The translations under genes and the position numbers were made by a program. Shown one piece after another: positions 22,440 through 50,780 of a DNA stretch of 64,000 bases (the first letter of the stretch is position 1; each line of letters opens with the position of its first letter). Location: assembly GCA_041691135.1 (NCBI GenBank), contig JBEPVF010000002.1:64001-128000 (forward strand). Reading direction: 5' to 3'. The DNA comes from Candidatus Peribacteria bacterium (GTDB taxonomy: Bacteria > Patescibacteriota > Gracilibacteria > Peribacterales > Peribacteraceae). The notes under the pieces are model-generated. The model was not told the DNA's origin, did not search any database, and saw nothing but the letters and a program-made list of their open reading frames with translations.

Positions 22440-22840
22440 CACTACACCCAGGCGGCCCTACGCCGCCTAACTTCTTCGCACGCTCACAATTCCAGGCAAA
22501 CACCCCTCCGCCTATGTGGTGGGGATGAGTGGGTACGAATGTTGGTGGAGCATGCCGTAGGCGCTCCGCCGATATGAGGTGGGTCATAGGCGGTGCGCTT
22601 CTTTTTGGTTCTTTTTCTTGTCGCGGGGAGTCAAGAAAAAGAACACCAGTGGTGACTGGGAAGGTTGGTGCAGGAAAATATCTCAGACACCGCAGCCGGG
22701 GACGGCTGCTGCTACGGGTGAATGCCCAACATCCGCGGGTAGAAAACCCTCTCCCCTAGAGAAAATTGAGATAAGGAATATTGAGACAAGAAATGATGAA
22801 GGCATAGAACACAACCGCGCCAAGAGATGGCGCTCTCTAG
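22440..22840 (+). repeat. Structured non-coding repeat, copy 1 (putative RNA plus 3 REP-like modules)
   Basis: Homologous to 39361-39698 and 50509-50780; covarying stems. Confidence 0.85.
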
Positions 22841-22861
22841 GAGGAATAGAGAATCATTGAA

Positions 22862-24070
22862 CTACACGTGCCGCAATAAATGACCCATCTTCTCTTTCTT
22901 GGTCTTCATATACTTCCGCTGTCGATCCGACTTCGGTGCCAACTCGATTGGAATCTGCTCGGTCACTTCCAATCCATATCCCTGCAAGGCTACCATTTTC
23001 TTAGGATTATTGGTGAGCAATCGCATACGGCCGACGCCGACGTCTTTTAATATTTGCGCGCCAATACCGTACTCCCGCAGATCCTCCGGCAAACCCAATT
23101 GCTCATTAGCCTCCACTGTATCCAATCCGGTGTCTTGCAAGGCATAGGCTTTGATCTTGTTGGCGAGTCCGATACCACGTCCTTCCTGGCGCAGGTAGAG
23201 CAAGACGCCTCTTCCTTCCTTGGCAATTCGGCTCATTGCCTCGTGGAGTTGTTCGCCGCAATCACAGTAGTGAGACGCAAAGACGTCGCCGGTAAGGCAT
23301 TCGGAATGCACGCGAACCAACACCGGATCCTCGGGATTGAATGTTCCCTTCACCAGGGCAACATGATCTCTTCCCCCTACCGTATCGCCGTACACGCGAA
23401 TCTTCCACGGACCAGTATCGGTGTCGATATTCGATTCGGCCTCCAAACGGATGTATGACTCATGCTTGCGGCGCCAGGCAATAAGATCGGCGATCGAAAT
23501 GATCGGCATGGCATGTTCCTGGGCGAACTCCATGAGCGCGGGTAACCGCATCATCGTTCCATTGTCGTGCATAAGTTCGCTGAGCACACCTGCGGGACGC
23601 AGACCCGCCAACTTGCACAAATCAATCGTCGCCTCGGTATGTCCGGTACGGACGAGAACACCGCCATCCTGTGCTCGCAACGGAAAGACATGTCCCGGAC
23701 GGCGTAAATCTTCGGGGGTTGCTGCCGGATTGATCGCCGCCAAAATCGTTCGTGCGCGATCGTGCGCCGAAATACCAGTCGTTACCCCTTCAGTCGCTTC
23801 GATACTGACAGTGAAGGCGGTACCGAATTTGGAGTTGTTGTGAGACAACATCGGCGGCAGTGCCAGTTGGTCGGCAACCTCGTTGCTTAAGGGCATGCAT
23901 ACCACACCACCCGTGTAGCGGATCATGAATGCCATTTTTTCTTCGGTGATGAACTCAGCAGCCAGAACCAGATCGCCTTCGTTCTCACGATTTTCATCAT
24001 CCACCACGATCACGAATTTTCCTTCTCGCATCGTATCGATGGCCTCGGCTACGGAAGAGAGTTCTGACAT
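22862..24070 (-). CDS. ribBA: Bifunctional DHBP synthase / GTP cyclohydrolase II
   Basis: [58 protein letters not shown]. Confidence 0.97.
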
Positions 24071-24135
24071 AGAGTGTCAGCCTAGCACAGCCAACGGAGA
24101 TTTTGTAGGCAGGGAAACTGTATCTTTTTCAATAC

Positions 24136-25557
24136 TTACTTCTTCAAACTAACCGTATAGAGCTCCTTTTTCACACTCGGTGATAACAGCGAATCACGCG
24201 ACACGGCGACCACGTATGTACCAGACGGATACACATACGACTGATTGCAACTGGGCTCGGTGAAGCCGAACAGATCCACATTGTCGAGCGGGTAAATGGT
24301 ACACCCCAAGGTGTCCGTGCTCACAAGCTGCAGCGTCATCGTTTGTCCAGTCGTGCCGGCGCTCGACACATTGAACTTGTAGTAGTTCTGCAAGTTGCCG
24401 GCTTCCAAGCCTTCGGTGCGCACTTTCACCGTATCAAGACTCACCGCCTGCGAAAAACCATCGTTGCCATCTCCTTTGCCTGTCTTCACGACGACGTTGA
24501 ACTTCGCACCGGCCGTACTCGGCTGCAACTGCAACTGATACTTTCCCGCCGTCAACGTGGTGAGGAAGGCGCAATTGCCCTGATTCATGTAAGCCGAGTA
24601 ATACTCGACGGAAAAACCGGTATCTTCCAAGCGGTACAACCGACACGTGAGCGACACCGCCGTTCCCGGCACGAACGTGACGGCCACATCGAGCGTCGTC
24701 ATTTGCTGCAGATTGAACTGGTACGAAAGGGACTTCTTCGCGTCGAATGTCTGCGCATCAGTGAAGGGAACGGAGACGCTGAGGATCTGCGCCGGCGTCG
24801 ATGAGACACTGCCATTGGTGCCTAACGCACGCGATGAGGATGAATTCGCTGCGGAAGCATTTGCCGCCGCGGAGCTGGCTGCGGCTACAATGGCGGCCGA
24901 ACTCTGGCTTTCCTGTTGCTGCAGTTGCTCTTTCAGACGAACACGCAGGGCGCTGTTGATGTAGGCCGCCGCTTCGCCACGACTGAGCGGCGTATTGGGA
25001 TTGAAGCTCTTCCCGATTTCGCCTCCCGCCGGCAGCACTGTCTTTTGATACGCGGCGTTTACGTAGTTATAAAACCAATCGGTCGCCTTCACGTCATCGA
25101 ACATGGGCGGAAGATAATCTTTGACGCCGGCCAATGTCATATCAAACTCGAAGATTTTCAGGATCATCTTAAGCGCCTGTGCGCGCGTGACCGGCATGTC
25201 GGGCCCGAAATTACCGTCGCCGATACCTTGCACGTAGTTCATGTTGAGCGCGGCACAAATGAATCGCTCGGCCCAGTGTCCGGCTACAACATCCTTGGCA
25301 CACTGACGCTCGGGTTCGGGCGGCTCAAAATTTATCGCCTTGTAGATCATTTTGATCATCGCCGCGCGACTTACCGGATAGCTGGGACGGAACGTGCCAT
25401 CCGGATATCCTACGATCACGCCCTTGTCCGCCAGTGATTCCACCGCATCCCGATAGAGGTAATCCGAGGGAACATCGGAAAAGGTCTTCGCGTGAGCGGT
25501 TGTGACTGATAGCAGCAGGAAGAACGGAACAAATGGAAAGACACGAAAGAGGCGCAT
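24136..25557 (-). CDS. SLH-domain cell-surface protein
   Basis: Signal peptide; three SLH repeats (FSDVP..GYPDGTFRP..SRA; GIGDGNFGP..TRAQ; FNPNTPLSRGE); Ser/Ala linker; beta-rich C-domains. Confidence 0.9.
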   Translation of the reverse strand: MRLFRVFPFVPFFLLLSVTTAHAKTFSDVPSDYLYRDAVESLADKGVIVGYPDGTFRPSYPVSRAAMIKMIYKAINFEPPEPERQCAKDVVAGHWAERFICAALNMNYVQGIGDGNFGPDMPVTRAQALKMILKIFEFDMTLAGVKDYLPPMFDDVKATDWFYNYVNAAYQKTVLPAGGEIGKSFNPNTPLSRGEAAAYINSALRVRLKEQLQQQESQSSAAIVAAASSAAANASAANSSSSRALGTNGSVSSTPAQILSVSVPFTDAQTFDAKKSLSYQFNLQQMTTLDVAVTFVPGTAVSLTCRLYRLEDTGFSVEYYSAYMNQGNCAFLTTLTAGKYQLQLQPSTAGAKFNVVVKTGKGDGNDGFSQAVSLDTVKVRTEGLEAGNLQNYYKFNVSSAGTTGQTMTLQLVSTDTLGCTIYPLDNVDLFGFTEPSCNQSYVYPSGTYVVAVSRDSLLSPSVKKELYTVSLKK

Positions 25558-25604
25558 ACGTACGAGTGGGTGAAGCAGTTTTGATCGTACGTTGAACACT
25601 TTCG

Positions 25605-26090
25605 TTATTCAATTCCCGGCTGCATGATCGCCTTGAGCACTTGCAGCGATTGTAGTACTGCATACGCCGCTTCCACTCCTTTATTATTTTCACCTATGGA
25701 GCGTGTCCGCGCGTCCTTCAAATCATTGACGTACAGGACTTCGAAGGCGAACGGGAGGATATATTTCATCTGCACATCCATCATGGCCGCCGTCACATTT
25801 TCTGCGAGCAATCGGGCGTGCTGCGTCTGTCCTTCCACAATAATCCCCAGTCCGATCAGCCCATCCACCTGCCCGGACTGTGCCAGAGCAGCTCCGATGA
25901 GAGGAATTTCAAAAGAGCCGGGTACCCGGTGAATCATGATGTGTTCATCAGGGATACCTGCCGACGTGAGGGTTTTGATAGCCCCTTCGACCAGCCCATC
26001 GATCTCCTCCTTATAAAAAGAAGACGCGACGATACCAATGCGCCAATCGGGATTCGCTTGGAGTGCCGGTGGAGTGAGGCTGCGTTCCAT
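25605..26090 (-). CDS. ribH: 6,7-dimethyl-8-ribityllumazine synthase
   Basis: RIGIVASSF, VPGSFEIP, LGIIVEGQTQH, NKGVEAA. Confidence 0.93.
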   Translation of the reverse strand: MERSLTPPALQANPDWRIGIVASSFYKEEIDGLVEGAIKTLTSAGIPDEHIMIHRVPGSFEIPLIGAALAQSGQVDGLIGLGIIVEGQTQHARLLAENVTAAMMDVQMKYILPFAFEVLYVNDLKDARTRSIGENNKGVEAAYAVLQSLQVLKAIMQPGIE

Positions 26091-26094
26091 TGAT

Positions 26095-26673
26095 TTACCT
26101 ATGCGCGAGAAGAGCAGCAGTATACCGACCAAGCACGTCAGTCTCAATGTTCACGTGGTCCTGCGGCTTTACGTTGCCGAGCGTCGTGTGCTGCAGCGTA
26201 TGGGGAATCAGAGCAATGGAAAGATGTGCCCCGTTGATGGATGCCACGGTGAGCGACACGCCATCGATGGCGATCGATCCTTTGGGAATGATAGGCGACG
26301 AAAGATCATTCGGCAGCGTCAGATACAGCATGGCTCCGGTTTCTGCTGTGTCCAAACGATCAACGGTTGCCACACCTTCTATATGTCCCTGCACGCTATG
26401 CCCTTCGAAACGGCCGTTCGCGGCCAGCGACCGTTCCAGATTCACCAGGTCACCCACCTGGAGATCGCCAAGCTTCGTCCGAGCCCATGTTTCGGCTACC
26501 ACATCGAATGAAAGCGAATCATGATCAAATTTTGTGATCGATAAACAAGCGCCTGAGACAGAGATACTATTCCCCTCCTTTATATCATCAAAAAATGACG
26601 GACGTTCCACCACCAAACCGCTGGCCGTTTTTTGCCTCACTTTCGCCGTTGCTTCAATGATTCCGGTGAACAT
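26095..26673 (-). CDS. ribE: Riboflavin synthase (alpha chain)
   Basis: MFTGII, GACLS, VNLERSL, KGSIAIDGVSLTV, VNIETD. Confidence 0.97.
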   Translation of the reverse strand: MFTGIIEATAKVRQKTASGLVVERPSFFDDIKEGNSISVSGACLSITKFDHDSLSFDVVAETWARTKLGDLQVGDLVNLERSLAANGRFEGHSVQGHIEGVATVDRLDTAETGAMLYLTLPNDLSSPIIPKGSIAIDGVSLTVASINGAHLSIALIPHTLQHTTLGNVKPQDHVNIETDVLGRYTAALLAHR

Positions 26674-26935
26674 GCTCTGATGCTACAAGTCGGAATTGAA
26701 GAAAGAAAGGATGGAAGCCCTTAAACAAAAATTCCCCGAATCTCCTGATTCCTCTGAATCACTTGAATCTTCCAGTAACTGACATCTCCCTCTTACTTTC
26801 TTCGCCAGAATCAACGAAATATCTGTCCTCTACCCTAGACAAAACTCAATTTTCTCTGTAAACTTCGGCCTCTAGGAGGCCTTCGCGCGAGCGCGGAGCA
26901 TTTTTTGTATGCCTCTTTTTCCTTTCTCCAATCGT

Positions 26936-29866
26936 ATGGACCGTATCATCGTCAAAGGTGCGCGCATGCACAACTTGAAAAACATCGATGTCAGCATTCC
27001 GCGCAATAAACTCACCGTCATAACCGGACTTTCGGGTTCCGGAAAATCGACGCTCGCATTCGATACCATTTTCGCCGAAGGCCAGCGACGCTACGTCGAG
27101 AGCTTATCGGCATACGCACGCCAGTTCATCGCTCAAATGGAGAAGCCCGAAGTGGATTCGATCGAAGGGCTGAGCCCCGCCATTTCGATCGACCAGAAAA
27201 CGGCGCCGCGCAATCCGCGTTCGACCGTGGGAACGGTAACTGAAATCTACGACTATATGCGTCTGCTGTGGGCCAAAGTCGGCAAAGTGCACTGCACCGT
27301 CTGCGGCCGCATCCTCAGTCAGCAATCAGCGAGTCAGATCGTCGACACGATCACCAAAATGACGGACGGGAAGAAAGTTTTTCTCCTGGCACCGGTTGTG
27401 CAGGGCCGCAAGGGCGAGCACGTGAAGATCATCGACTCCATCCGACGCGAAGGTTTCGTACGCATGCGCGTCGACAACCAGATCGTGACGATTGACGAGG
27501 AAGTGAAACTGGATCCCAAAGTGGCGCACACGATCGAGATCGTCGTTGACCGTCTGATCATTCGCGACCTGGAGACGAAAGAGGGCGAGGTAAATCCGAA
27601 CCGCACGCGTCTGGCTGACTCGGTGGAGTTGGCACTGAAGCGCGGCGAAGGATCGCTGATCGTTCTGGATGCTGATACCGACGAGGAGTCGCGCTACTCG
27701 GAATCATTCGTCTGTCCGGACCACCCTAACGAAGACATACCGCAAATCGAACCGCGCAGTTTTTCGTTCAACTCGCCGCATGGCGCATGCGAAAATTGCC
27801 ATGGTATCGGCTCCATTCTGCGCGTGGACGAGACTGCGGTTGTGCCGAATCCGCGACTGTCGCTGGCCGAGGGTGCACTGCATCCATGGGCTACGTCAGC
27901 CAGTCGTATGGGCTATATGACGCAGATGCTGGAAGGACTGGCAGCGGAAATCGGCTTCGATCTGTCGACGCCGTGGAACAAGCTCAAACCTGAACATCAG
28001 CAGACTATCCTGCACGGATACGACAAGCAGATTCACGTCGAAGTGAATACCTACAAATACGGAACGCGCTACGCCACTACGTATGAAGGACTGGTTCCCA
28101 ATTTGGAACGACGACATTCCGAGACGGACAGCAATTACATGCGTCAGCAGATCGAAGAATACATGATGGAGTTGCCCTGCACCGAATGCAACGGCATGCG
28201 CTTGAAGAAAGAAATCCTGGGCGTGACGGTCGGCGACAAGAATATCGTATCGGCAACGGACATGAGCATTGATGAGGCGGAAGAATTTTTTAAGATACTC
28301 ATCCCGGATGTCGGTCCCTCCAACGAAGCCGCCGGCAAAAAAAAGAAGGGCTCCGCAGCCGCGGCGCACGCGTTATCGCTCTCGACGTATGAGTACACGA
28401 TTGTCAAAAAAGTCCTGCAGGAGATCATCGCGCGCCTTACATTTCTGGAGAACGTCGGACTCAAGTATCTAACACTGTCGCGATCGGCCGCCACCTTATC
28501 CGGCGGCGAGGCGCAGCGCATCCGACTGGCGACACAAATCGGTTCGGCCTTGCAGGGCGTGTTATACGTCCTCGACGAACCATCCATCGGCCTGCACCAG
28601 CGCGATAATTCGCGTCTGATTCGCACCATGACCCAGCTGCGCGATTTGGGAAATACGGTAATCGTCGTGGAACACGACGAAGAAACGATCGAAGCAGCGG
28701 ATTATCTGCTCGAAATCGGTCCCGGCGCCGGCAAGTACGGCGGACAGGTGATCGCACAGGGGACGCCCGATGAACTGATCGCAATGGAGAACTCGGTGAC
28801 GGGACAGTATTTGAGCGGCAAGAAGTTCATCGAAGTCCCGACGAAGCGTCGCAAGGGAAACGGGAACTTCATTCGCATTGAGGATGCCCATCATCACAAC
28901 CTGCAACACGTGAACGTCGAATTTCCGCTCGGCACTTTCACCGGTATTTCGGGCGTGTCGGGATCCGGCAAATCGAGTCTGATCCACGGCATTCTGGCAC
29001 CGGAACTCCTGCGTGTACTCAATAAGGCTCACAGCAAGCCGCAGGATGTCGGATCGATCGAAGGACTCCAGCATCTGGATAAAGCGATTGTGATCGACCA
29101 ATCTCCCATCGGCCGCACACCGCGAAGCAATCCGGCCACCTATACCGGCATCTTCACCGATGTGCGCGACATGTACGCCGCGACGCCCGAAGCGAAGTTG
29201 CGCGGTTACAAGCCGGGACGGTTCAGCTTTAACGTGAAGGGCGGCCGCTGCGAAGAGTGTGAAGGCGACGGACTCAAGCGCATCGAAATGCACTTCCTCC
29301 CCGACGTGTTCGTCACGTGCGAAAAATGCCATGGCAAACGGTATAACCGCGAAACACTGGAAATCACCTACAAAGGCAAGAACATCGCCGAAGCGCTGGA
29401 TATGACGATCAGCGAGGGGCTTAATTTCTTCTCGGCCATTCCGTCCATCAGGAGCAAATTGCAGACACTCGAAGACGTCGGTCTCGGCTACATTCACTTG
29501 GGACAGAGTGCCACCACGCTCTCCGGCGGCGAAGCGCAGCGCGTGAAGCTGGCGACCGAACTTACCAAGCGTGCCACCGGCAAAACGTTCTACATTCTGG
29601 ATGAACCGACAACCGGCCTGCACTTCGACGACATCAGCAAACTGCTGGAGGTGCTGCAACGTCTGGTGGACAAGGGCAACACCGTCCTGGTGATCGAGCA
29701 CAACCTCGACGTGCTCAAATGTGTCGACCACGTCATTGACATCGGCCCGGACGGCGGACACGGCGGCGGCCTCGTTGTCGCCACCGGCACGCCGGAAGAA
29801 GTGGCAGAGGTGGAGGCAAGTTACACGGGGCAGTATTTGAAAAAAGTATTAGCCAAAAAAAGGTGA
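26936..29866 (+). CDS. uvrA: Excinuclease ABC subunit A
   Basis: [25 protein letters not shown] twice, GVSGSGKS, Zn fingers. Confidence 0.99.
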
Positions 29867-29990
29867 CCGAAGTGACCGAAGAAACAGAGGTGGCAGAGGA
29901 CGAAAGAGTGTGAGGAGTACTTCTCTGCAATCTTCTACATCTCTATCCTCTGTCACATCGGTAACTCCTGCCACCTCGGTCGCCTCACCT
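29862..29990. repeat. Inverted pair of degenerate 9-mer tandem arrays
   Basis: ggtgaccga-agtgaccga-agaaacaga-ggtggcaga followed by the complementary-type tctgtcaca-tcggtaact-cctgccacc-tcggtcgcc. Confidence 0.7.
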
Positions 29991-30473
29991 ATGATTCGTC
30001 ACTTCACTGCCACCGCCTTCGTCATCGATTCACATAAACGCTGTCTGCTGCTGTGGCATAAGCGGCTGCAGCGCTGGATGCCGCCCGGCGGCCATGTAGA
30101 TGAGAATGAATTGCCGGAAGACTGCGCCAAACGCGAGTGCAAAGAAGAGACCGGGCTCGATGTGGAAATTATCGGCGATGTGCAGGATGATTTATTTGTC
30201 GAGAACAAACACGAGGGACACATGCTCAAGAAACCCATCGCATTACTGCTCGAAAATATTCCAGCCAGCGAAGAACGTGGCGAGCCGGCGCATGAGCATA
30301 TGGATTTTCTGTATCGGGCACGGCTGGTAGACGAAACACAGGCATTGATACTCGACGAAAATGAGGGAAGTGCCTTGCGCTGGTTTACACTTTCGGAGAT
30401 TCAAGTTTTGAAGGAAGACACTGAAATATTCAGCAACGTGAAACGATACATACAAACTCTGCTCTCGGCGTAG
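29991..30473 (+). CDS. NUDIX hydrolase
   Basis: WMPPGGHVDENELPEDCAKRECKEETGL Nudix box. Confidence 0.93.
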   Translation: MIRHFTATAFVIDSHKRCLLLWHKRLQRWMPPGGHVDENELPEDCAKRECKEETGLDVEIIGDVQDDLFVENKHEGHMLKKPIALLLENIPASEERGEPAHEHMDFLYRARLVDETQALILDENEGSALRWFTLSEIQVLKEDTEIFSNVKRYIQTLLSA

Positions 30474-30481
30474 ATTTCTTT

Positions 30482-31714: not shown

Positions 31715-31802
31715 GCATTATGTTGCGCGGAATCGAATAATATTAGATAAGATAGATTATGCAACATATCTTTTTATGAAACAAATGAATATACTTGTGG
31801 AT

Positions 31803-33860: not shown

Positions 33861-33864
33861 CTCC

Positions 33865-34881: not shown

Positions 34882-34930
34882 GACGGCAAATTTCCTCTGT
34901 CCGATGCACCCTTTCTGATACTCTTTGCCC

Positions 34931-37900: not shown

Positions 37901-39304
37901 AGTCCGGCATTCCATCATTGTATTGTGAACGGCACGGTGCTGGCGGAGGACGGCAAAAAGATGAGCAAGCGTTTGAAGAATTATCCTGAGCCACTTGTGG
38001 TAGTGGAGAAGCATGGCGCTGATGCGGTACGCTTTGCACTCATGAGTTCACCGGCCGTTCGCGGCGAAGACATGCGCTTTTCCGAAAAAACAGTCGAGGA
38101 GACGGTTCGCAATGTGCTGTTGCCGCTGTGGAATACCTATTCATTCTTCGTCACCTACGCGAACGCAGCCCAGTGGAAACCGAGCATGGAGAGACGTGAA
38201 TCGACGCATCCTTTGGACCGATGGATAAAAGCCGAAGTACAGGACCTGACTAATCGTATGACAGCCCAGCTCGATCGATACGACCTGTCGGCATCATGCG
38301 GCGAACTCGACGAGACGATCGATGCACTCACCAATTGGTATATCCGCCTCTCGCGCCGGCGGTTTGCCGGCAAGTCGGCATTGCAGGAACAGGGGCCTAT
38401 CGAAGGCGCAAAACCCGAGGAGCAAGCTGACGCGCTTGGCACGCTCTACGACGTTCTTGTCACGCTCACTCAGCTGTTAGCACCGTTCTGTCCGTTCATG
38501 ACCGAAGAGATCTACTTGAATTTGGCAGCCGATGACCACGGCTCGGTCCACCTCACGCGCTGGCCCACAACTCGGGCGCTGACGAAAGAAGAGAACGTGA
38601 TCATCGAAAAAAATCGTCTGCTCCGCCGCATCGTCTCACTCGGACTCTCCATTCGTTCGGAAAAGAAAGTGAAAGTACGACAGCCATTGCAACAAGCTCT
38701 CGTTGCCGTTCCGGCGACTCTCCGATCGATCGTGAACATCACATCCGAAGACGTGGCGCTTCTGCGTGACGAGATCAACGTGCGCGAAGTGGAATTCGTG
38801 GACGACCCCGGCAGTTTGGCACAAGCAATTGCGCTGGTGGATGCCAGAAAAGCAGGCCCGCGTTTCGGCGGTGCCGTTCAGGAACTGATTGCCGCCGGTA
38901 AGCGCGGTGAGTTCGAGCAGAAGGGCGACACGATCATCATTGCCGGCAAAGAATTGAGCAAGGAAGAAGCCACCATCGTCTATCGCGGCAAAGACGGGGA
39001 CACAGACAACGTTGCCGCTGATCACGGCGTCGTCGTGAGTCTCGATACGAACATCACTCCCGAACTGCAGCTCGAAGGTAACGCCCGCGATCTGATCCGC
39101 GCGATTCAAAAAGAACGCAAAGAATCGGCACTGCAAATGCAAGATCGAATCAGTCTGAAAATCGAAGGGGCGGATGATGTCGTCCAACTACATAAGAGCC
39201 TGATCGAACGCGAGACCAATGCCACCTTCGGCTCGGCCTCGGGAAGCGAATATGCGGTGGATGTGGAGGGAAAGAAGGTGATGTTTTGGTTTGAGAAGGT
39301 GTGA
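34931..39304 (+). CDS. ileS: Isoleucine--tRNA ligase (type 2) with two inserted histidine phosphatase domains
   Basis: DGPPFATGLPHYGH, GWDCHGLP, WTTTPWTLP, DWSVSRNRFWG, EGIDQTRGWF, KMSKR; inserts begin RHAES and RHGQS. Confidence 0.97.
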   Translation: MPFDPVDPKQSLPDMERGILRYWQEEDTFKRSIRSKVVEDVNKKREDDQNTQYSFYDGPPFATGLPHYGHLLAGTIKDVIPRYQTMKGKHVQRRFGWDCHGLPVEYEIEKANNLTRIDIEEMGVKAFNDLCRSVVQRYTKEWRVTVERMGRWVDMDWDYRTMDPEYMESIWWGFKELHKKGLVYQGFRPMHICPRCVTPLSNFEVTQGYKEVTDLSAVAKFLLTEGTDGTEETEEKTFFLAWTTTPWTLPGNLFLAVNPEVEYVKWNWNDEFFISSKEFFKEWKEKGAGQYAPVVKPGHHIPESPRVMQEYKGTELVGKNYEPLFPYFADQYPDAFRVVEGDFVTTEDGTGIVHIAPGFGEDDFKTGQREKVKMLQHVTMDGKFIKEVTDFSGMEVKPKDKPSSMDQKINEYLKTHGTLFEEKPFRHTYPHCWRCDSPLLNYATSSWFVSVEKIKDKMLKNNAKTEWVPAHIRDGRFGKWLENAHDWSVSRNRFWGTPLPLWINDETGEIEAIGSRDELIAKDPQRFTKLTVIRHAESEGNLIPIYQGTVPGTSLSKNGISQAKELAKLMKKEPVHVIYTSPLDRAKQTADIVGKAVKTEVTVDDRLREVSFGEYEGKMVDFSDLSFVKAKRAKQLEADAVESIYHFPGMETWGEVSSRVMPFLQEIIEKHKGEHVVIVTHADPIQHVRQFFTDQEPRKLVNQPYPSFTEPYTFYWDHRTNAPLDLHKEIVDDITWQAGSDENAVTLTVVRHGQSDWNIDERIAGASDRPLSDKGREQAAALRQKLNANDYDVILSSDLERTLETGRIATSGWGKEIVVEPLFREQNLGDWEGKLLEEVRKEHPEYSENFLKDVAEVPGGENRREFLNRVREAIKYLREKHKGKRVLLFTHRRWISGLRHLKLAAPIWEPLENTHHETLVLKPTFRRVGDVFDCWVESGSMPFAQSHYPFESGHKKDVPPGFPANFIAEGIDQTRGWFYTLTVLATALFDSPAFHHCIVNGTVLAEDGKKMSKRLKNYPEPLVVVEKHGADAVRFALMSSPAVRGEDMRFSEKTVEETVRNVLLPLWNTYSFFVTYANAAQWKPSMERRESTHPLDRWIKAEVQDLTNRMTAQLDRYDLSASCGELDETIDALTNWYIRLSRRRFAGKSALQEQGPIEGAKPEEQADALGTLYDVLVTLTQLLAPFCPFMTEEIYLNLAADDHGSVHLTRWPTTRALTKEENVIIEKNRLLRRIVSLGLSIRSEKKVKVRQPLQQALVAVPATLRSIVNITSEDVALLRDEINVREVEFVDDPGSLAQAIALVDARKAGPRFGGAVQELIAAGKRGEFEQKGDTIIIAGKELSKEEATIVYRGKDGDTDNVAADHGVVVSLDTNITPELQLEGNARDLIRAIQKERKESALQMQDRISLKIEGADDVVQLHKSLIERETNATFGSASGSEYAVDVEGKKVMFWFEKV

Positions 39305-39360
39305 TGTGCGAGGAAACCGACGGAACCGAGGGAACCGAGGATTTTGTTTTTCTGCATTCT

Positions 39361-39698
39361 CACTACTTCCAGGCGGCCCTACGCCGCCCAACCTCTTCGC
39401 CTGCTCGCTATTCCAGGCAAACACTCCTCCGACTATGTGGTGGGGATGAGTGGTTACGAGCCCTGCTGTCGCCAGCCCACAGGCGCGACAGCAGGGCGAG
39501 GTGGGTCATAGGCGGTGCGCTTTCTTTGGTCCTTTCTTTGTCGGGGAGACAAAGAAAGGACACCAGTGGTGATTGGAGAGGTTGGTGCTGGGGAATCATG
39601 AACATCCGCGGGTAGCAAACCCGCTCCCCTAGAGAAAATTGAAGCAAGGAATGATGAAGACATAGAACACAACCGCGCCAAGAGATAGCGCTCTGTAG
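39361..39698 (+). repeat. Structured non-coding repeat, copy 2
   Basis: Homologous to 22440-22840; lacks the first REP-like module. Confidence 0.85.
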
Positions 39699-39751
39699 TA
39701 GCAAAGATACGAGGATTGGAAAATCATCCTCTCTAAGATATCCTACGAACC

Positions 39752-40147: not shown

Positions 40148-40175
40148 CTCGTCCCGGTATCTCTCGGGTTTTACC

Positions 40176-42234: not shown

Positions 42235-42377
42235 TGAAGGCAGTCTAGCTCCGACAGATTGGCTGGCAAATGAAAGATTATTAGCCAAAATGCGTCTTCT
42301 GTTCTATGACACGCCTTGCCCCTGCGTTTACTTTTCCTCCACATTCCGCTATGATGAACTACTTTCATCCACTCATC

Positions 42378-43070: not shown

Positions 43071-43154
43071 AGTGGCTAGGATTGGCCAAAATCGAGCAAA
43101 GAAAGACGTGCCTTATGGCACGTTTTTTGGTATAATAGAAGCAAATCAATTTCA

Positions 43155-44528
43155 ATGGTCAAAAGTCCCCTATCCCCCACTCGGCAACCGAGAACTTGGC
43201 GCACGCTTCGTTTTCGCACGCTCCTCGTCCTGTCGATGATTATTGTGGGCGCGAGTTTCTTTCTACAGGGCAAAATCCTGATCGAAGCACGCAACAAAAA
43301 TTCTCTCAAACGTGAAGTATTACTGTCGGCCCTCACACTGGACCGCAGCATCGTCAGCATCCTCGCCACACAGCAGCGCGACCCGGTGATCGAACAGACG
43401 ATTCAACCCCAACTCGACGCGCTCAACAAGACCACGCAGTCGACCGCAGTGATGATTATTGCCGAGGCTGCCGACAAAAATACGCTCGAGATCCGTTTGT
43501 CATCGGCTCCTCAACGGCGCGACGACACGATTACATTTCCGCCGGATATCATCGGATCACTGCGACAGCAACCGGATATGAGCGTGGTGATCGGATCAGG
43601 CGGCACACTGATGGCATTCATGCCGATCCGCGGCACACAGGGCGATGTCGTCGCCTTCCTCGGTATGGAGCGCGGCGAAAACGCATTCATCATCGCCGCA
43701 GAATCATTTGGTTTATCACTCATTCTGCTCTTCATCACCAGTGTTGTATTGTGGGCACTGATCCGCCGTTACACATCGCAAGGCAACGACGACGCCGTGC
43801 GTCAGTTCGATGCGAACCGCCTGGCGCTGATGGAACTCGCGACGCACCAGCTGGGAGCACCGCTGGCCAGCTTCAAGTGGTGGTTGGAACTGCTGCAGGA
43901 TCCCGACGGCAAAGAGCTGTGGGGTAACAAGGAAGTGACGATGCAGATCCAGGAAGGCGTCACGCGCATGGAGAGCATCATCAAAGCACTTACCGAAGCG
44001 AACGAAGTGGCGGCGCAGGGCGCCAATTACAAACTGGAAACACTCGCCTCACTCAAGGACATTCTCCGCCGCGGACTCAATGACGCAGCGTCCCATCTGC
44101 AACGCCGCAAGCAAGTACTGAAGATCTTCTTGGATCCGCAGCTCGATCCCGTTCAGCTCGATCCCAAACTGCTGTTCGGCGTGTTACAGGAAGTAATCGA
44201 GAATGCCATCGACTACTCGCCGGATAACACGACTCTCGAAATCCACGTGACCAAGGAAGGCCGCTTCGCACAAGTGGCAATCAAGGACCAGGGCTACGGC
44301 ATTCCGCCACAAGACCTGCCGCACATCTTCGAAAAGTTCACACGCGCTTCCAATGCCGCACAGTACAAGCCGGTCGGCAACGGCCTCGGCCTGTTCATCG
44401 CCAAAGGCATCATCCACAACCTGGGCGGTGACATGTGGATCGAAAGCAAGCTCGGTAAAGGAACCACGATTTTCTTTACGCTGCCGTTTGATCATCAGGG
44501 AGCGCAGGTATCGATGGCGAAAAAGTAA
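43155..44528 (+). CDS. Sensor histidine kinase (orphan)
   Basis: Two TMs, THQLGAPL H-box, ENAIDYS, DQGYGI, GNGLGL, GKGTT. Confidence 0.92.
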   Translation: MVKSPLSPTRQPRTWRTLRFRTLLVLSMIIVGASFFLQGKILIEARNKNSLKREVLLSALTLDRSIVSILATQQRDPVIEQTIQPQLDALNKTTQSTAVMIIAEAADKNTLEIRLSSAPQRRDDTITFPPDIIGSLRQQPDMSVVIGSGGTLMAFMPIRGTQGDVVAFLGMERGENAFIIAAESFGLSLILLFITSVVLWALIRRYTSQGNDDAVRQFDANRLALMELATHQLGAPLASFKWWLELLQDPDGKELWGNKEVTMQIQEGVTRMESIIKALTEANEVAAQGANYKLETLASLKDILRRGLNDAASHLQRRKQVLKIFLDPQLDPVQLDPKLLFGVLQEVIENAIDYSPDNTTLEIHVTKEGRFAQVAIKDQGYGIPPQDLPHIFEKFTRASNAAQYKPVGNGLGLFIAKGIIHNLGGDMWIESKLGKGTTIFFTLPFDHQGAQVSMAKK

Positions 44529-44596
44529 GAGAACAGTGCACAGAAGTCAGTGATCAGTAGTAGATACTGCAACTGGCATTTTTGTTTTTGGTTTTT

Positions 44597-45400
44597 TTAT
44601 TTTCTAACCGCCATTCTCTTCCACCAGTAACCCGCGACGACGATGTATCCCACATACACCAACAGCTCAATCAACGATGGCTGATCGCTATAACCGAATA
44701 ACTGACGCAATGAGCCGCCCACAAAGCTTTCCTGCGAGAGGAATTGCGAGATGTTCCACACATGCTCAATCCCCTCGGACAGAAATCCGGCCTCTTGGAA
44801 TTCGTGTGCGCCGTGCATCAACAGACCGGCACTGAACAGAATCAGAAGAACATTCACGACTAGGAAAAAGTGCCGGAGCGAAATGCGCCGGATGCCGGCA
44901 AAAAGCAAAATGCTCAGTACGACCGCGATACCGATGCCGAGTAACGCGCCGACGAAGTGCCATCCCGAACCGGATTGCAGCAGCGCGGCCTGCAGAAAGA
45001 TCACCGTCTCGGTGCCCTCGCGCAAAGTGGTGAACAGGATGAGGAGAAACACGCCAAAGCGGTATTCGCTCTGCACGTGCGACGATACATGTTGCTCGAT
45101 CGAACGACGCATGGCGGAACCGTGCCGCATCATCCAGAAGATCATCCAACTCATCAATACAACGGCAAGAATCATGAGCGATCCTTCGAATATCTGTTCA
45201 CTCCGCCCGGAAAATTCGCCGAACAGACGGCTCAACAAAACACCGAGCAGGATACTGATCAGAACACCGGCCGCAACACCGAGCCACACCGACGAACGAA
45301 AAGATTTGTGTTCGGTACGATCGAGATAGGCCAGAACAATGCCAACCACGAGCGACGTTTCGAGCGTCTCGCGAAGCGTAATAAGAACGGCAGCGGTCAT
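44597..45400 (-). CDS. FTR1/EfeU-family iron permease
   Basis: LRETLE and LREGTE (RExxE) motifs; HEFQEAG. Confidence 0.92.
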   Translation of the reverse strand: MTAAVLITLRETLETSLVVGIVLAYLDRTEHKSFRSSVWLGVAAGVLISILLGVLLSRLFGEFSGRSEQIFEGSLMILAVVLMSWMIFWMMRHGSAMRRSIEQHVSSHVQSEYRFGVFLLILFTTLREGTETVIFLQAALLQSGSGWHFVGALLGIGIAVVLSILLFAGIRRISLRHFFLVVNVLLILFSAGLLMHGAHEFQEAGFLSEGIEHVWNISQFLSQESFVGGSLRQLFGYSDQPSLIELLVYVGYIVVAGYWWKRMAVRK

Positions 45401-45533
45401 AAGAAAAGGCAGAATGAGGAGCAATTGAACGGATGCTCACACCATGGGATGCGCGGACGATACCAAGAGATGATCGCAAAGTACAAATGATTTTTCGGTG
45501 CGAATAGAGCGTCTGATCCGACGATTTCTCCGT

Positions 45534-46238
45534 CTATCGCGGATCACGCACGCCCACCTGACGGCACATATCGCGGACGGGACACGTGGAACATTTCGGT
45601 CGCAGCCCCGTACACACATGTTTGCCGAACGGCACCAGCAAACGATTGATCTCCAGTGAGTATTTGACTGGCAATTTCTTCTGCAATTGTTCCAGTGTTT
45701 TTTCGGGTGTCGCCGCCTGCACATACCCCCATCGATTAGTGACGCGATGCACATGAATATCGACGCCGATGAACGGCTGCCCGCAGGCAATCCCGAGTAC
45801 CAGATTGGCGCATTTGGGACCGACACCCGGGAAGGAAATCAGCACATCATGTTTGCACGGAACTTCTCCTCCGAATTCGCGTACGACCCGCCCGGCGATT
45901 GTCTGGATATTCTGCGCCTTCGCTTGGTGGAATGTGCAGTTGGCAATGAGTCGATCGATGGTCTTGATCGACATCCGGACTACCTGAGCCGGCGAACGAG
46001 CTTGGGCAAATAACTTCTTCGCCGTCGGCACCGTCACTTCGTCGTAGGTTCGGACCGAGATCATGCACGCAATGAGAACCTCGAACGTCGACTTGTAGCC
46101 TTGATCGTACAATTCAAACAGCGCGGCCTTTCGATAGGGCCGTACCGTTTCTTCAATGCGCTGCATCGTTTCATCGATATCAAACGGCCGCTTGGTCTGC
46201 GGGTCGTGAATGACGACATACGGAGGAACGGAAGCCAT
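45534..46238 (-). CDS. nth: Endonuclease III (HhH-GPD, 4Fe-4S)
   Basis: FPGVGPKCAN, VDIHVHR, CxxxxPKCSTCPVRDMC. Confidence 0.93.
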   Translation of the reverse strand: MASVPPYVVIHDPQTKRPFDIDETMQRIEETVRPYRKAALFELYDQGYKSTFEVLIACMISVRTYDEVTVPTAKKLFAQARSPAQVVRMSIKTIDRLIANCTFHQAKAQNIQTIAGRVVREFGGEVPCKHDVLISFPGVGPKCANLVLGIACGQPFIGVDIHVHRVTNRWGYVQAATPEKTLEQLQKKLPVKYSLEINRLLVPFGKHVCTGLRPKCSTCPVRDMCRQVGVRDPR

Positions 46239-46295
46239 GGGGAGCGCAGGGCAATAAGTTTCTGACGCGCAGCGGCCATACTTCTTACGTTAGTA

Positions 46296-46958
46296 TCAGA
46301 GCGACTGCAGCTGATGGGAACAGCTCGTGTCCGTACCTGTTTGCTCCACATCCGAGACCGGCAGGAACTGCTGCGTGCCGGCATCGTACGAAAATACTTC
46401 ACCGGTCTGTAATTTGTACACCCAGGCGTGCAGCTGCAATTTGCCTTCGGCAACACGCGAGGCGATAAACGGCAATTTGAGCAGATGTTCCACCTGCACC
46501 AGTACGTTCTCCTGCACCGCGATATTGCAACGCTGTTCCAGGTCGGCATCCGGATAGTTTTTTTCCACGATTTGCTTCACCTCAGCCGCATGTTTCAACC
46601 AGGCCGTCACGGCCAAAAGCGATGCATCGGCGCCTTCGATCAACGCCTTGATCGCACCGCAGCCCAGATGTCCGCAGATGATGATGTCTTTGATATCCAG
46701 AACTTCGAGCGCGTATTCGATCGCCCCGTGCTCGCTGCTCACTTGGCCGGAAGCGGGAACAATGTTGCCGATGTTGCGGACGATAAACAGATCTCCAGGC
46801 TTGGTGCTGGTGAGCAGAGTCGGAACAATGCGCGAATCGGAACACGTGATGAATAAGGCTTGTGGATGCTGCCCTTTGGCCAGCTCCTGAAACAGATCTT
46901 TGTGTTGCTGGAATGTCTGTTCGTGAAACTGATGAATGCCTGGGATGAGGGATTTCAT
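46296..46958 (-). CDS. Beta-class carbonic anhydrase
   Basis: CSDSR, RNIGN, HLGCGA. Confidence 0.95.
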   Translation of the reverse strand: MKSLIPGIHQFHEQTFQQHKDLFQELAKGQHPQALFITCSDSRIVPTLLTSTKPGDLFIVRNIGNIVPASGQVSSEHGAIEYALEVLDIKDIIICGHLGCGAIKALIEGADASLLAVTAWLKHAAEVKQIVEKNYPDADLEQRCNIAVQENVLVQVEHLLKLPFIASRVAEGKLQLHAWVYKLQTGEVFSYDAGTQQFLPVSDVEQTGTDTSCSHQLQSL

Positions 46959-47008
46959 GGCACATTTATACACCTTCTATCGTGAATGTCACCACGTCGA
47001 ATGGTGGA

Positions 47009-48160
47009 TTACTTACCGATAATCATCACAATCACGCCGATATTGTCTTTCTTCGCTGGCTGCTGCCTCGGCGCTCCTGTCTTCCAGTCTTGCCCCTCAT
47101 CAAAAGTGACAGCGTCCTTGCTGCGTAGAAACGCCTGTTCCGCAAGAAACAGACAAATATTTTCAGCAGTAGGGACCATGCCCTCCTTGGCTATCTCATG
47201 CTCGATCATCTCGGCGATCTCTTTGGAGAGGAAATTATCCGTCACACCATCGGTGAGAAGAATAAGAATATCTCCTTTCTTTATTTTTTGCGGTAGTTCC
47301 TCCTGGATTTTCCCTTCACGTACCTTAATGCAATTGGTGAGGATGTGTTTCACAGCACTAGTCATATACTGTTCTTCTGAGATTTCACCGTAATTCAGCA
47401 ACGCTCGCACAAGACTCTGATCGACTGTTTCTGCAGCGACTTTTCTCGTTTGGCCATCAATGATGATGCGTCTTGTGTCACCTGCGCTTGCCGTACGTTC
47501 GTAGAGAATTCCATCTGTATCTTCTTCCAGAACGGTAACTGTCGCACACGCACCATTTTGAGGATCCAAGCCACTCGCTTGCATGCGCTGCTGCGCGCTT
47601 TTTACGGACATCTTAGGTTCATGCGGCTGCATGAGTAATTCTTCGGTCAGGATCTGTGCCGCAGCTTCTCCTTGATCACCGCCTCCCACTCCATCCGCTA
47701 TTGCAAGCACCACTACATCTCCTTGTGGATCATTCAAATTTTTTGGGAATATTCGCATACCAACTCTGTCTTCGTTCACAAATTTCGTTTTCGTATCATT
47801 GCTTCTCCTGATGCCTCTATCTGTCACCATGGCCACGACGCCGAAGGGCGTCTCTTGCACGAAGGGATGTTCGATCGAGCCTACTATCCCTTGGCCGTCG
47901 AGAACGGCTCTCTGCTCTTGGTCTACTTTGGGGCGGTACGGAATTCTCATTCGCTGCATGAGCTTATGACGCACACCGGCTTTGGTGAACCGGACACCAC
48001 CGCCATGTTCCTCGCGTAGTCTTCTTTTTATAATGCCCCTCACTTCGTCCAACTGAAATACATCCACACTGGACTGAGTCGTAAGACCGCTTACTTCGGA
48101 CGAGAGTACTTGATTGACCTCATCGAGAGACGGCAAGGTCCTTGGTCGTGATACGGACAT
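47009..48160 (-). CDS. PP2C/PPM-type Ser/Thr phosphatase with long N-terminal extension
   Basis: NEDR, IADGVGG, AGDTR, LTDGVTD, DNI. Confidence 0.88.
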   Translation of the reverse strand: MSVSRPRTLPSLDEVNQVLSSEVSGLTTQSSVDVFQLDEVRGIIKRRLREEHGGGVRFTKAGVRHKLMQRMRIPYRPKVDQEQRAVLDGQGIVGSIEHPFVQETPFGVVAMVTDRGIRRSNDTKTKFVNEDRVGMRIFPKNLNDPQGDVVVLAIADGVGGGDQGEAAAQILTEELLMQPHEPKMSVKSAQQRMQASGLDPQNGACATVTVLEEDTDGILYERTASAGDTRRIIIDGQTRKVAAETVDQSLVRALLNYGEISEEQYMTSAVKHILTNCIKVREGKIQEELPQKIKKGDILILLTDGVTDNFLSKEIAEMIEHEIAKEGMVPTAENICLFLAEQAFLRSKDAVTFDEGQDWKTGAPRQQPAKKDNIGVIVMIIGK

Positions 48161-48202
48161 ATTTATATATTACAATTTTATTTAATTTTGTCAAAATACT
48201 CC

Positions 48203-49039
48203 TCAGAGGTCCAAAAACGAGCAGCATTGGACTTTCTTCTCATCCAGCAGCTCGAGAATTGATGGATCAAGCAGCATTCTGAATTCGGTCTGTCGCTGCG
48301 GATCCAAATCGAACGGCATGCCGTACGTCGTCTGACTGCCGGGGTGGACCATGAGTTCCGTCGTTCCTTCTGGGAGACGACCGATGACGTGGCGAAGATT
48401 TTTGAGTGATGCGTTGCCGACGAGCGTGAGCCCGCGGAAGTGATCGGTGGAGACGAGTCCGTTCGCCGCATAGAGTTCACGCGCTGTTCTCGCCTGCTCA
48501 TTGATCTTCTGCGTTCGTTCCAATTGTTCGGGTGACACGTCGTACCCAAACGGCGGCAACGGCTCTTCGCACGGAATGCGGACGAAGCGAATGCCGTAGC
48601 GTTCGCAAGCCGGCAGTAGCGCATTCACGATCATCGGATGAATATGTATGTGATGATGACCGTCGATGTGCGTCGGCGCGCCGTACGTATCGAAACACCA
48701 TTCGATCTGCGCGCGGATCTCGCGTTCCAAATGTTCATGCTGTACTTCGCCGTTATCGAGCGCGGCCCGGAATTTTTCGCGGCTCATGAACGCGCCATTG
48801 CTCTCGGTCACACTGCTCACTTCGGCCTGCTTGCTGAGCGGATACTCCTCGGTGAAGTTCAGGTGCAGACCGGCCGGCACATTCCGCTCGCGCGCATGAC
48901 GCGCGGCATGGTCGCTATCGGATCCAGTGGCGAGGATCGTCGTGCTTGTCGCCACGCCGAACTCCATGCATTGAAAAATACCATGAGAGCGCTGGGCATT
49001 GATGCCCAGATCATCGGCATTGATGATGAGGCGACGCAT
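48203..49039 (-). CDS. ChbG/HpnK (YdjC) family deacetylase
   Basis: IINADDLG, GLHLN, PTHIDGHHH, ELMVHPG. Confidence 0.93.
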   Translation of the reverse strand: MRRLIINADDLGINAQRSHGIFQCMEFGVATSTTILATGSDSDHAARHARERNVPAGLHLNFTEEYPLSKQAEVSSVTESNGAFMSREKFRAALDNGEVQHEHLEREIRAQIEWCFDTYGAPTHIDGHHHIHIHPMIVNALLPACERYGIRFVRIPCEEPLPPFGYDVSPEQLERTQKINEQARTARELYAANGLVSTDHFRGLTLVGNASLKNLRHVIGRLPEGTTELMVHPGSQTTYGMPFDLDPQRQTEFRMLLDPSILELLDEKKVQCCSFLDL

Positions 49040-49065
49040 GCAGCCAGTGTAGAGCAAAAGACAGC

Positions 49066-50151
49066 CTACTTCTTGGTCGATTCGAACGTCTGAACCATCT
49101 GAAAGAGGGTGGAGAGGGCGACATTCAACGACCCCTTCGTCTCATTGTCCGCCTGTGGCACTCTGATCTCGAAACGGAATCTCGTATCGAGTGTGACGTA
49201 GTACGCATGCACCGTCTGACCTGATGGATAGATTTCGTCGCTTCCATATGCCGTATAGGTCTTCCCTTCGACCTGCAACTGGCGCTCGATGGTTGGTACA
49301 AGTTCAAGCGCGCCACCACTCTCGGGTAGAGCAATGATAGTGACTGATCCGTCCTTTGTCTGCATTGTCACAAATGATGAACCCGACGCCGTCACCGTTG
49401 CACTGGATGGGTAACGAATCTGATAACTGAAATCTGCATTCGTGTAGGTCTGCCAATCGGCATGCGCTTGGGCAGATGACGATGATGATGCAGGTGCAGA
49501 CGACACACTGGCTGACTGATCATTCAAATATTTCGCCCGTGCTTCCATCACCATCTTCACCGTCTCGGCGCGATTGACTGAATCGGTGGGACGAAAGCGG
49601 TTGAGGCTTTGGCCACTCATATCCATATCACCGGTGAGAATATCATCGCGACTGAGCGCTTCGACGGCAAAGGCATACGTGGTGGAAGCGGTGACATCGT
49701 CATACCGGTTGCCGACGGGCGTCTCCTGATCCACGCCAAACGCATCGGCAATCAACGACGCGACTTCGGCACGCGTGGCATCGCGCTGAAAATCAAGGCC
49801 CGACTGGCCTTTAGTCATCGCAAAATTATGATCGAACGCGTAATCCATATACGGCAACACCCAATACGCACCGCCCATCGAAGTGGCGGGCTTGTGATCC
49901 GATCCTCGGATCGCGATCTTAAGCGCCTCGGCAACAGTCACATGATCCGCCGGTCCGAATTTTCCGGTCAGGTTGCCGCGCGCATCCGTGTAACCGTTCA
50001 CGATCCCCTCGTTCGCCGCCATGTTCACATAGTCGGCATACCACGCGCCGGTTTCGACATCGGTAAAATTGGTACGAGCTGCCTGCGCATTCGCGATAAA
50101 AGGAAGCAGAAAGGCAATCGAAGCAAAACGTACAGTAAGTTTGGCATTCAT
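49066..50151 (-). CDS. SLH-domain protein with C-terminal PsbP-like domain
   Basis: FTDV..WY, ATRAE, FRPTDSVNRAE; WQTYTNADFSYQIRYP. Confidence 0.85.
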   Translation of the reverse strand: MNAKLTVRFASIAFLLPFIANAQAARTNFTDVETGAWYADYVNMAANEGIVNGYTDARGNLTGKFGPADHVTVAEALKIAIRGSDHKPATSMGGAYWVLPYMDYAFDHNFAMTKGQSGLDFQRDATRAEVASLIADAFGVDQETPVGNRYDDVTASTTYAFAVEALSRDDILTGDMDMSGQSLNRFRPTDSVNRAETVKMVMEARAKYLNDQSASVSSAPASSSSSAQAHADWQTYTNADFSYQIRYPSSATVTASGSSFVTMQTKDGSVTIIALPESGGALELVPTIERQLQVEGKTYTAYGSDEIYPSGQTVHAYYVTLDTRFRFEIRVPQADNETKGSLNVALSTLFQMVQTFESTKK

Positions 50152-50367
50152 AGAAGCATGCGGAAAGTAGGCGTGATTGTACCTCTCTTCCGAAGAGAAG
50201 AAAGGATGATGAGACGATTTTTTGAATAGTGGTCTTACAACGGAGAAAAGGAGTCAAGAGATTCAGTGGAAAAGATCGCTCCATGAGCATTCGGAAAATG
50301 TTCAGCATGGCGCTGCCGCTTTCTTCGCGGTTGGTCGAAGCTGGTTGATTCATCGTGAGCGCATGCA

Positions 50368-50462
50368 CCCTCACCCCGGCCCTCTCCCTCCTTCCCACGC
50401 CGCAAAGGGAGTGGTGATCGTCTGCTCGTCATGGAACATCAGAAACCTGCCGGGAGAGGGAG
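50368..50462. repeat. CCCTCACCCC-type REP-like hairpin with expanded loop
   Basis: CCTCACCCCGGCCCTCTCCC ... GGGAGAGGGAG. Confidence 0.6.
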
Positions 50463-50508
50463 ATGTATGTTGTGTGTGTGTTGTGCCTAACGAAGCTCTC
50501 TCAAATAG

Positions 50509-50780
50509 TTCTAGGCGGCCCTAAGCCGCCTAACTTCTTCGCCTGCTCACAATTCCAGACAATGACCCCTCCGCCTATGTGGTGGGGATGAGTGGGTACG
50601 AACTTCCTTGTCGCCGGCCCATAGGCGCGACAAGGAAGTGAGGTGGGTCATAGGCGGTGCGTTTTTCTTTGGTCCTTTCTTTTGTCGCGGGGAGACAAAA
50701 GAAAGGACACCACTGGTGACTGGAGAAGTTTGTGCTGGGGAATACCTCAGACACCGCAGCCGGGGACGGCTGCTACTGCT
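50509..50780 (+). repeat. Structured non-coding repeat, copy 3
   Basis: Homologous core; carries only the GCAGCCG-GGGA-CGGCTGC module. Confidence 0.85.

Follow-up and report, generated by a model that had tools for sequence, protein, structure and literature searches.

We report that the 64,000-nucleotide stretch of DNA analysed here (the window; positions 64,001 to 128,000 of contig JBEPVF010000002.1 in the Candidatus Peribacteria bacterium assembly GCA_041691135.1, family Peribacteraceae) carries three copies of a structured element of approximately 250 nt, at about positions 22440, 39361 and 50509. All three are on the + strand and intergenic as judged by the list of open reading frames (ORFs). 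A profile was built from these copies using nhmmer and run on all contigs of the genome to which the window belongs (G000; 1.74 Mb, 35 contigs, draft 92% complete). It gave exactly three matches in the window (contig C2, positions 86440, 103361 and 114506), which together with the ORF list bears out the original prediction of a recurring intergenic core on the + strand; every string quoted in that prediction was found in the copies and, as it had stated, no ORF is common to them. The count of three is right for the window and not for the genome, where the profile finds the element 33 times on 13 contigs, with 22 full-length matches and 11 partial ones. Eight of the latter reach a contig end, so that the assembly is broken by the repeat, and in the only public DNA run holding the locus the unitigs also end at the element. 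In the following, the sense strand refers to the strand of the element that lies on the + strand of the window, i.e. the + strand of the original prediction.

The cores of copies 1, 2 and 3, as delimited by profile match and alignment, span 22432..22686, 39353..39603 and 50495..50750, respectively, and the same parts follow each other on the + strand in all of them. The first is a hairpin, H0 (22450-22468, 39371-39389 and 50513-50531); its sequence, AGGCGGCCCTAxGCCGCC, had been taken as one of several near-invariant linkers and is indeed present, though as a hairpin and not as a linker. Then comes a helix, P1 (22508-22516 with 22585-22593, 39429-39437 with 39507-39515, and 50571-50579 with 50649-50657), between whose strands stem A is situated (22539-22575, 39460-39497 and 50602-50639), and finally a pyrimidine tract (22598-22606, 39520-39527 and 50662-50670) and hairpin B (22608-22644, 39529-39561 and 50672-50708). 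Stem A seems to be dispensable or prone to deletion, because one G000 copy (C5:26820-27031) is without most of it and a low-depth contig of the DNA run, probably representing a paralogous copy, skips 61 nt there (window positions 22524-22586). Five other G000 copies (C1:260789, C7:36839, C11:55269, C12:8120 and C16:6944) have an insertion of approximately 35 nt, with a hairpin of its own, in the 3' strand of P1.

The similarity between copies reaches beyond the 250-nt core, 10-230 nt upstream and 20-170 nt downstream, and the element is a mosaic in which upstream modules, and likewise downstream hairpins, alternate among copies. Upstream of the core, copy 2 has a module of short GA-rich repeats that is common to other copies (39290..39352, +), and copy 3 has a G/C-rich module (50368..50460, +) that resembles the complement of TMECO/BoxC and consists of two pyrimidine blocks (50368-50388) and their purine complement (50452-50460). 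The latter type, with the purine complement some 60 nt after the two pyrimidine blocks, has 20 copies in G000, positioned upstream of cores and in the same orientation as these. On the 3' side the hairpins are repetitive extragenic palindromes (REPs), all on the + strand: copy 1 is followed by type 1 (22688..22715), type 4 (22730..22756) and type 3 (22813..22840), copy 2 by type 4 (39603..39629) and type 3 (39671..39698), and copy 3 by type 1 (50752..50779). The type 1 hairpin of copy 1, with its GTAG head on the - strand, is the same as the REPs that flank the gene for a REP-associated tyrosine transposase (RAYT) at C1:268373, the type 3 hairpin has a cognate RAYT at C5:61831, and for type 4 no RAYT partner was found in G000. 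The mosaic extension beyond 250 nt, the approximately 30 copies and the family-wide distribution of the core (see below) were missed in the original prediction.

Covariation was assessed on an alignment of 23 rows (22 G000 copies and one copy from a genome of the same genus). Stem A, which has six alleles in G000, pairs in 97% of the cells with two-sided changes in 11 of 13 pairs; the corresponding values for hairpin B are 95.8% and five of 15 pairs. For the whole structure the covariation score is 0.247 compared to 0.112 in shuffles (none of 500 reached the observed value), and sliding the partners gave at most 0.087. Hence the two stems that had been proposed to vary in sequence yet stay paired show strong covariation, and the structure is conserved beyond chance both here and in the family alignment, as expected if it is under selection. 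Other proposed pairings fared less well. The closing stem exists but is weak, pairing in just 82% of the cells and being lost in several copies. The helix CCGCCTATG/CATAGGCGG is invariant within G000, apart from a mismatch in copy 2, and is therefore supported by the relatives only. The suggested pseudoknot between TTCCAG and CTGG shows no covariation, and its observed level of pairing was reached by 326 of 500 shuffles. Three G-T pairs in copy 1, originally pointed out as working only on the + strand, are real; over all good helices, however, the departures (six distinct G:T and eight distinct A:C) are in balance and so do not name the folding strand. A G-quadruplex in the G-rich loop was considered and rejected, being part of the predicted fold in two of 14 sense folds.

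At the gathering score Rfam 15 has no family for the element, in agreement with the original failure to recognise a named one, and its only matches in the window are a tmRNA (57023-57434, +, 103.6 bits) and two tRNAs (18413-18484, -, and 19099-19172, +). Relaxing the threshold gave nothing meaningful at E≤10 for copy 1, or at E≤1 for nine loci from relatives.

In other genera of the family only a short form is present, i.e. a GC stem around a G-rich loop, a linker, the pyrimidine tract and hairpin B. When five of these short-form copies were used for a covariance model, it gave more than 600 matches in the family and placed the core in 70 of its 101 genomes (at most 32 copies in any one), with none at threshold in the remaining 31; these genomes (G-numbered) are relatives and hence not independent samples. 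In a class-wide sample the core was detected in all 16 genomes of the family and in one of 135 genomes from 33 other families. Among 41 core copies from about 30 genomes two-sided changes occur in all 22 modelled pairs and 98.2% of the cells pair, compared to 76.7% after shuffling (score 0.525 and 0.134, respectively), in an alignment that was fitted to the model and thus favours the modelled pairs.

The positions of the copies turn over. When empty and filled sites were compared, as the original prediction had proposed, gain or loss was seen at orthologous sites: the site of copy 2 is about 20-60 nt long and without the element in two genomes of the same genus (G003 and G002), while in a third (G004) it comprises about 235 nt with REP-like hairpins and no core, and at the site of copy 1 in G004 H0 is fused directly to a REP. 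The contigs of the single DNA run, possibly that of the source sample, did not show a clean empty-site joint. Only nine clusters of flanking proteins (260 proteins from about 87 sites) are common to different genomes; sites kept between genera are thyA/folA (G000 and G008) and rplT (G000 and G092). Near-identical subfamilies of copies are present within G092. The idea of a riboswitch or leader was rejected because the genes downstream in the relatives are unrelated (ndk, S1-like, folE and HMG-CoA reductase-like, as judged from their N-termini).

The orientation of the copies follows replication. In G000 all copies on a contig share one strand, and the sense strand is the locally C-rich (lagging) strand in 29 of 33 copies. 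In G092, a complete genome in a single contig of 1,239,242 bp, ten of ten copies between 48 and 545 kb lie on the - strand and six of seven between 754 and 1179 kb on the + strand. GC skew, determined for thirteen 20-kb pieces, is positive in five of six at 100 to 680 kb and negative in all seven elsewhere, and dnaN is located at 9-10 kb. Because the strand blocks match the flip in GC skew, the sense strand is the lagging strand in both replichores, overall for 16 of the 17 copies; contig 1 of G049 likewise has two strand blocks. The complementary strand, which would be the active one, is thus the lagging-strand template in G000 and G092, in line with the orientation bias of IS200/IS605 elements. 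Transcription does not set the orientation, given that the flanking genes in G000 are of mixed classes; both are opposite to the element in nine cases, both in the same direction in eight, convergent in five and divergent in two (these and other gene-context counts are approximate, with ORFs called crudely by a longest-ORF rule). Two contigs of G020 (C2 and C32) have cores arranged as adjacent inverted pairs with a distance of approximately 100 nt, in contrast to the single, oriented copies found in other genomes of the family.

Moreover, the element is linked to REPs with resident transposases. The original prediction had suggested looking for a co-occurring nuclease or RAYT gene. Four Y1_Tnp matches were found in G000, and three of the proteins (134-157 aa) score 96.9, 93 and 86.3 bits with NCBIfam NF047646 (REP-associated tyrosine transposases; cut-off 80 bits). 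Each of these RAYT genes is flanked by its own REP, types 1 and 2 on both sides in inverted orientation, and type 3 with a clear copy downstream and only a partial one upstream. In total there are 37 REP matches (four types, 26-28 nt) in G000, of which 27 are situated 4-133 nt 3' of a core and co-oriented with it without exception; the other ten either flank RAYT genes or are found at contig ends or close to them. REP type 1 ends with CTAC on the + strand, i.e. GTAG on the opposite strand, and both ends of the element carry CTAC on the + strand. The 3' hairpin modules therefore have the hallmarks of REPs, being GTAG-headed intergenic palindromes with cognate RAYTs between inverted REPs. The core itself is neither a 20-40-nt palindrome nor an inverted doublet flanking a RAYT, as REPs and REP doublets (REPINs) are. 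In the alignment of 22 copies with flanks no terminal inverted repeats are seen; these, together with a target-site duplication, would be expected of a miniature inverted-repeat element of a DDE transposon.

Among 61 family genomes, 38 have a RAYT above the cut-off. RAYTs are unusually numerous in family genomes of approximately 1.2 Mb (G013, G015, G021 and others), where one genome can have as many as 13 matches; elsewhere among bacteria they are described as mostly single-copy (PMC5581495). As regards the proposed nuclease, PF07282 has no match in G000 (at 92% completeness), and the idea of TnpB with a guide RNA was rejected. There is one IS200-type TnpA in G000, elsewhere on contig C8. An RVT_1 ORF (350 aa, 80 bits) is located approximately 1.9 kb upstream of this IS200-type Y1 gene (148 aa, 120 bits; C8:10387-13289, loci L044 and L040), and the pair could represent a retroelement beside an insertion sequence.

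The part of the core that consists of pyrimidine tract and hairpin B has a wider distribution. The tract lies on the 5' side of hairpin B and is similar to the pyrimidine arm of that hairpin. Nine allele rows with asymmetric tracts, representing at least five lineages, have the tract as the mirror image of this arm, which makes it parallel-complementary to the purine arm in the way that a triple helix requires; rows of the G092 type have a direct repeat of the arm instead, and for the commonest allele, which is symmetric, the flanking bases favour a direct repeat. A pattern for tract and hairpin is matched by at least 120 loci in a wide range of phyla, those among the matches listed extending from Bacteroidota to DPANN archaea; one Lysobacter genome has 45 copies and one Ralstonia genome 48, where a reversed control pattern gave none. 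At the loci of this cross-phylum module, pairing between the 5' flank and the hairpin loop is far above chance, corresponding to the topology of an H-type pseudoknot (44 distinct paired segments; mean run 4.28 compared to 2.75 ± 0.09 in 500 reshuffles). No recurrent neighbour gene was found among 841 ORFs around 120 of these loci, and translations of spurious ORFs within the module gave no Pfam or NCBIfam family. That the module might be the cognate REP of RAYTs in other phyla was rejected since it is absent from the eight RAYT loci inspected. The module appears to be undescribed, as does the element; neither was found in the literature searched, although the supplementary ITxF lists of PMC4666352 might include the motif, which is not in its main text.

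Some further features of the module were observed. Head-to-head inverted pairs, 420-500 bp apart and with similar inner halves, are present at L051, L054, L056, L081 and L105 (Caballeronia, Paraburkholderia and Ralstonia), and 33 of 149 module instances have an upstream stem-loop with a conserved loop sequence. In a DPANN archaeal record (L077:2790-2989, -) Infernal predicts a tRNA of 200 nt with a long insert, within which the module lies on the opposite strand, and a second, Iainarchaeota-like record (L146) has it in a similar tRNA context. Stray Rfam matches were Bp1_684, a small RNA candidate from Burkholderia that overlaps the 3' side of one Caballeronia copy, and TwoAYGGAY beside one locus.

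The explanation that we prefer, and which we consider to have about an even chance of being correct, is that the element is a non-autonomous repeat, similar to bacterial interspersed mosaic elements (BIMEs), that functions on the lagging-strand template as a fold of single-stranded DNA. A family-specific structured core would have gained extra hairpins in G000, namely H0 and the hypervariable stem A, and its 3' side would then have been joined to REP hairpins cognate to three resident RAYT (Y1/HUH) genes. The strand opposite to the sense strand carries the GTAG heads and, in both the A/T-rich and the G/C-rich motif, has the pyrimidine-purine-purine order of a purine-motif intrastrand triplex. 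The fold would form there while the lagging-strand template is transiently single-stranded, and RAYT, or another activity in relatives without it, would amplify or move the element. Y1 transposases are described in PMC6006769 as acting on the lagging-strand template, with a separate REP family for each RAYT. We favour single-stranded DNA because the complementary strand, with its GTAG heads and its pyrimidine-purine-purine order, is this very template; that the orientation follows replication and that hairpins recognised by a transposase-like enzyme are joined to the core make such a fold more probable than an RNA gene. Purine-motif class II intrastrand triplexes are reported to be stable at neutral pH, and the C-rich complement to need acid (PMC4666352). 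Of the options listed in the original prediction, a non-autonomous mobile element or single-stranded DNA fold fits best, in view of the polarity with replication, the fused REPs with cognate RAYTs and the orthologous sites that are filled in some genomes and empty in others, and we found no support for a ribozyme or a guide RNA.

Several observations weigh against this explanation. The RAYT genes are flanked by REPs and never by the core, and across the family the presence of RAYT and the presence of the core do not track each other. PF01797 was detected in none of five core-rich relatives, including the complete G092 (17 copies) and G048 (32 copies), and RVT_1 in one of the five, so that the core is present and strand-biased in genomes without the proposed Y1 enzyme. 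No target-site duplication or fixed target sequence was established, duplications not having been searched for systematically. The core, of approximately 100 nt, is conserved nearly throughout across genera, including its unpaired G-rich strands; this exceeds what transposase ends usually need and is typical of functional RNA. Furthermore, the sense strand folds better than its complement in seven of seven sequences, by 4-9 kcal/mol with RNA parameters and by 1-4 with DNA parameters. Outside the family, the module shows no strand bias in either Lysobacter (19 forward and 26 reverse) or Ralstonia (21 and 27), and the RAYTs there carry other REPs, those of Lysobacter being flanked by other palindromes. 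Finally, when the third strand was matched to the purine strand by Hoogsteen rules, as in the intrastrand triplex classes of PMC4666352 (stems of 6-15 nt), the mean parallel run for 39 alleles is 6.85 nt, compared to 6.22 nt with mismatched partners and to 7.31 nt for the antiparallel run, and the parallel run is higher than the antiparallel in 12, equal in eight and lower in 19; the case for a triple helix, which may nevertheless form, is therefore mixed. Considering that RAYT does not track the core and that there are relatives without Y1 genes, RAYT may account for the REP parts and possibly for how the composite spread in G000; the origin and polarity of the core are not accounted for by it.

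The foremost alternative, tentative and in our judgement rather unlikely, is a structured RNA made from the sense strand, in which a U-rich tract, placed after a GC stem with a G-rich internal loop, would occupy the major groove of the U/A hairpin (U.A-U triples). Such an RNA could work in cis at gene 3' ends, for instance by stopping 3' exonucleases, a role described for REPs, or the copies could form a small RNA family that works in trans. The perfect set of covarying pairs in the family copies, the unpaired strands conserved across genera, the better folding of the sense strand and the H-type pseudoknot topology of the cross-phylum module would all suit this alternative, and only on the + strand are the two pyrimidine strands and one purine strand of a canonical triple helix present. 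The gene context speaks for it too, with the upstream gene co-oriented at 27 of 37 family sites and convergent the commonest class (16 of 37). However, orientation tracks replication instead of flanking genes, the nine G000 copies with both neighbours opposite would be antisense to both, and in about 90% of the copies sense transcripts would run head-on to the fork, the reverse of what is usual for RNA genes. The lack of an Rfam match and the balance between G:T and A:C departures also speak against RNA.

A more far-reaching proposal, which we regard as doubtful, is that the core represents a new replication-polarised element of a single candidate-phyla-radiation family, built on an ancient cross-phylum module (a pyrimidine-pyrimidine-purine triple helix or pseudoknot) not described as a family before. 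It would then be either a folded signal on the lagging-strand template or a repeat that multiplies without Y1 or reverse transcriptase. Less probable still is that the core primarily serves the host and is not mobile, i.e. that it is a chromosomal DNA signal read in a replication-dependent direction, such as a site on the lagging-strand template for single-strand initiation or for pausing, or a translocase site with polarity. The strong two-replichore polarity in a complete genome without Y1 and reverse transcriptase genes, the near confinement of the core to this family in the class-wide sample and the few sites conserved between genera (thyA/folA and rplT) would be accounted for. On the other hand, close genera differ in copy number (0 to 32), close to a third of the family genomes have no core at the threshold used, most sites are not orthologous, near-identical subfamilies exist within genomes, the G000 element is a mosaic with REPs and no partner protein is known. 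Least likely, and in our view improbable, is that the polarity is a by-product of selection, with insertion in both directions followed by the purging of copies whose G-rich structure-prone strand is on the lagging-strand template, so that neutral relics are left: a strand bias occurs only together with the G-rich loop, i.e. in this family, and the loop-less module is unbiased in Lysobacter and Ralstonia, but a G-quadruplex is part of the minimum-energy fold in just the two sense folds mentioned above, and sequence and pairing are kept far beyond what a neutral relic would retain.

Repeats are usually considered scarce in the small streamlined genomes of this lineage, and here about 30 structured copies break the assembly of one of them. 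The family-wide element marks the direction of replication almost perfectly, and its strand can be used to orient metagenome-assembled contigs relative to the origin. If the fold on single-stranded DNA that we prefer is true, the element would be a natural system for hairpin and triplex recognition at the replication fork and would show how REP-type repeats grow into larger mosaics; if RNA is true, it would constitute a new multi-copy structured RNA class.

Compared to known systems, the element resembles REP/BIME (REPIN) sequences and their RAYTs as described in PMC6006769 in the following traits: numerous copies between genes, for the most part at 3' ends, different hairpin types in mosaic clusters, GTAG-headed palindromes, RAYTs flanked by their own REP and several REP families per genome. 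It differs in that the core is 100-250 nt long with conserved unpaired strands, is not located at RAYT genes and is present in relatives without a Y1 gene, and in that the REPs of the element are single and co-oriented instead of inverted doublets. With IS200/IS605 and derivatives, as presented in the same source (PMC6006769), it shares hairpins at both ends, the absence of terminal inverted repeats and an orientation that depends on which strand is the lagging-strand template, whereas the insertion 3' of a fixed tetra- or pentanucleotide that is typical of these was not shown; unlike these, it has no TnpB in G000, the TnpA there lies elsewhere, on C8, and the core persists in genomes without Y1 genes. 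TMECO/BoxC (Holder et al. 2015, PMC4666352), according to the main text of that report, is a high-copy intergenic sequence with three consecutive blocks (third strand, pyrimidine and purine), i.e. CCCTCNCCC, 3-6 nt, GGGNGAGGG, 3 nt, GGGNGAGGG, and has a length of 37 nt, a G/C-rich sequence and no strand bias in E. coli. The upstream G/C-rich module with its 20 copies matches the complement of this block pattern, with two G-blocks and a 3-nt spacer on the - strand, except that the C-block is approximately 60 nt away instead of 3-6 nt, while the main motif of the element is A/T-rich, embedded in a larger fold and oriented by replication. Finally, although it has no Rfam match, tens of copies per genome and no common downstream gene, and although in this family the hairpin loop is short and the flank-loop pairing weak, the cross-phylum module shares with the SAM-V fold, as far as that fold's description goes, the succession of a flank, a U-rich loop 1, a stem 2, a loop complement and a purine strand.

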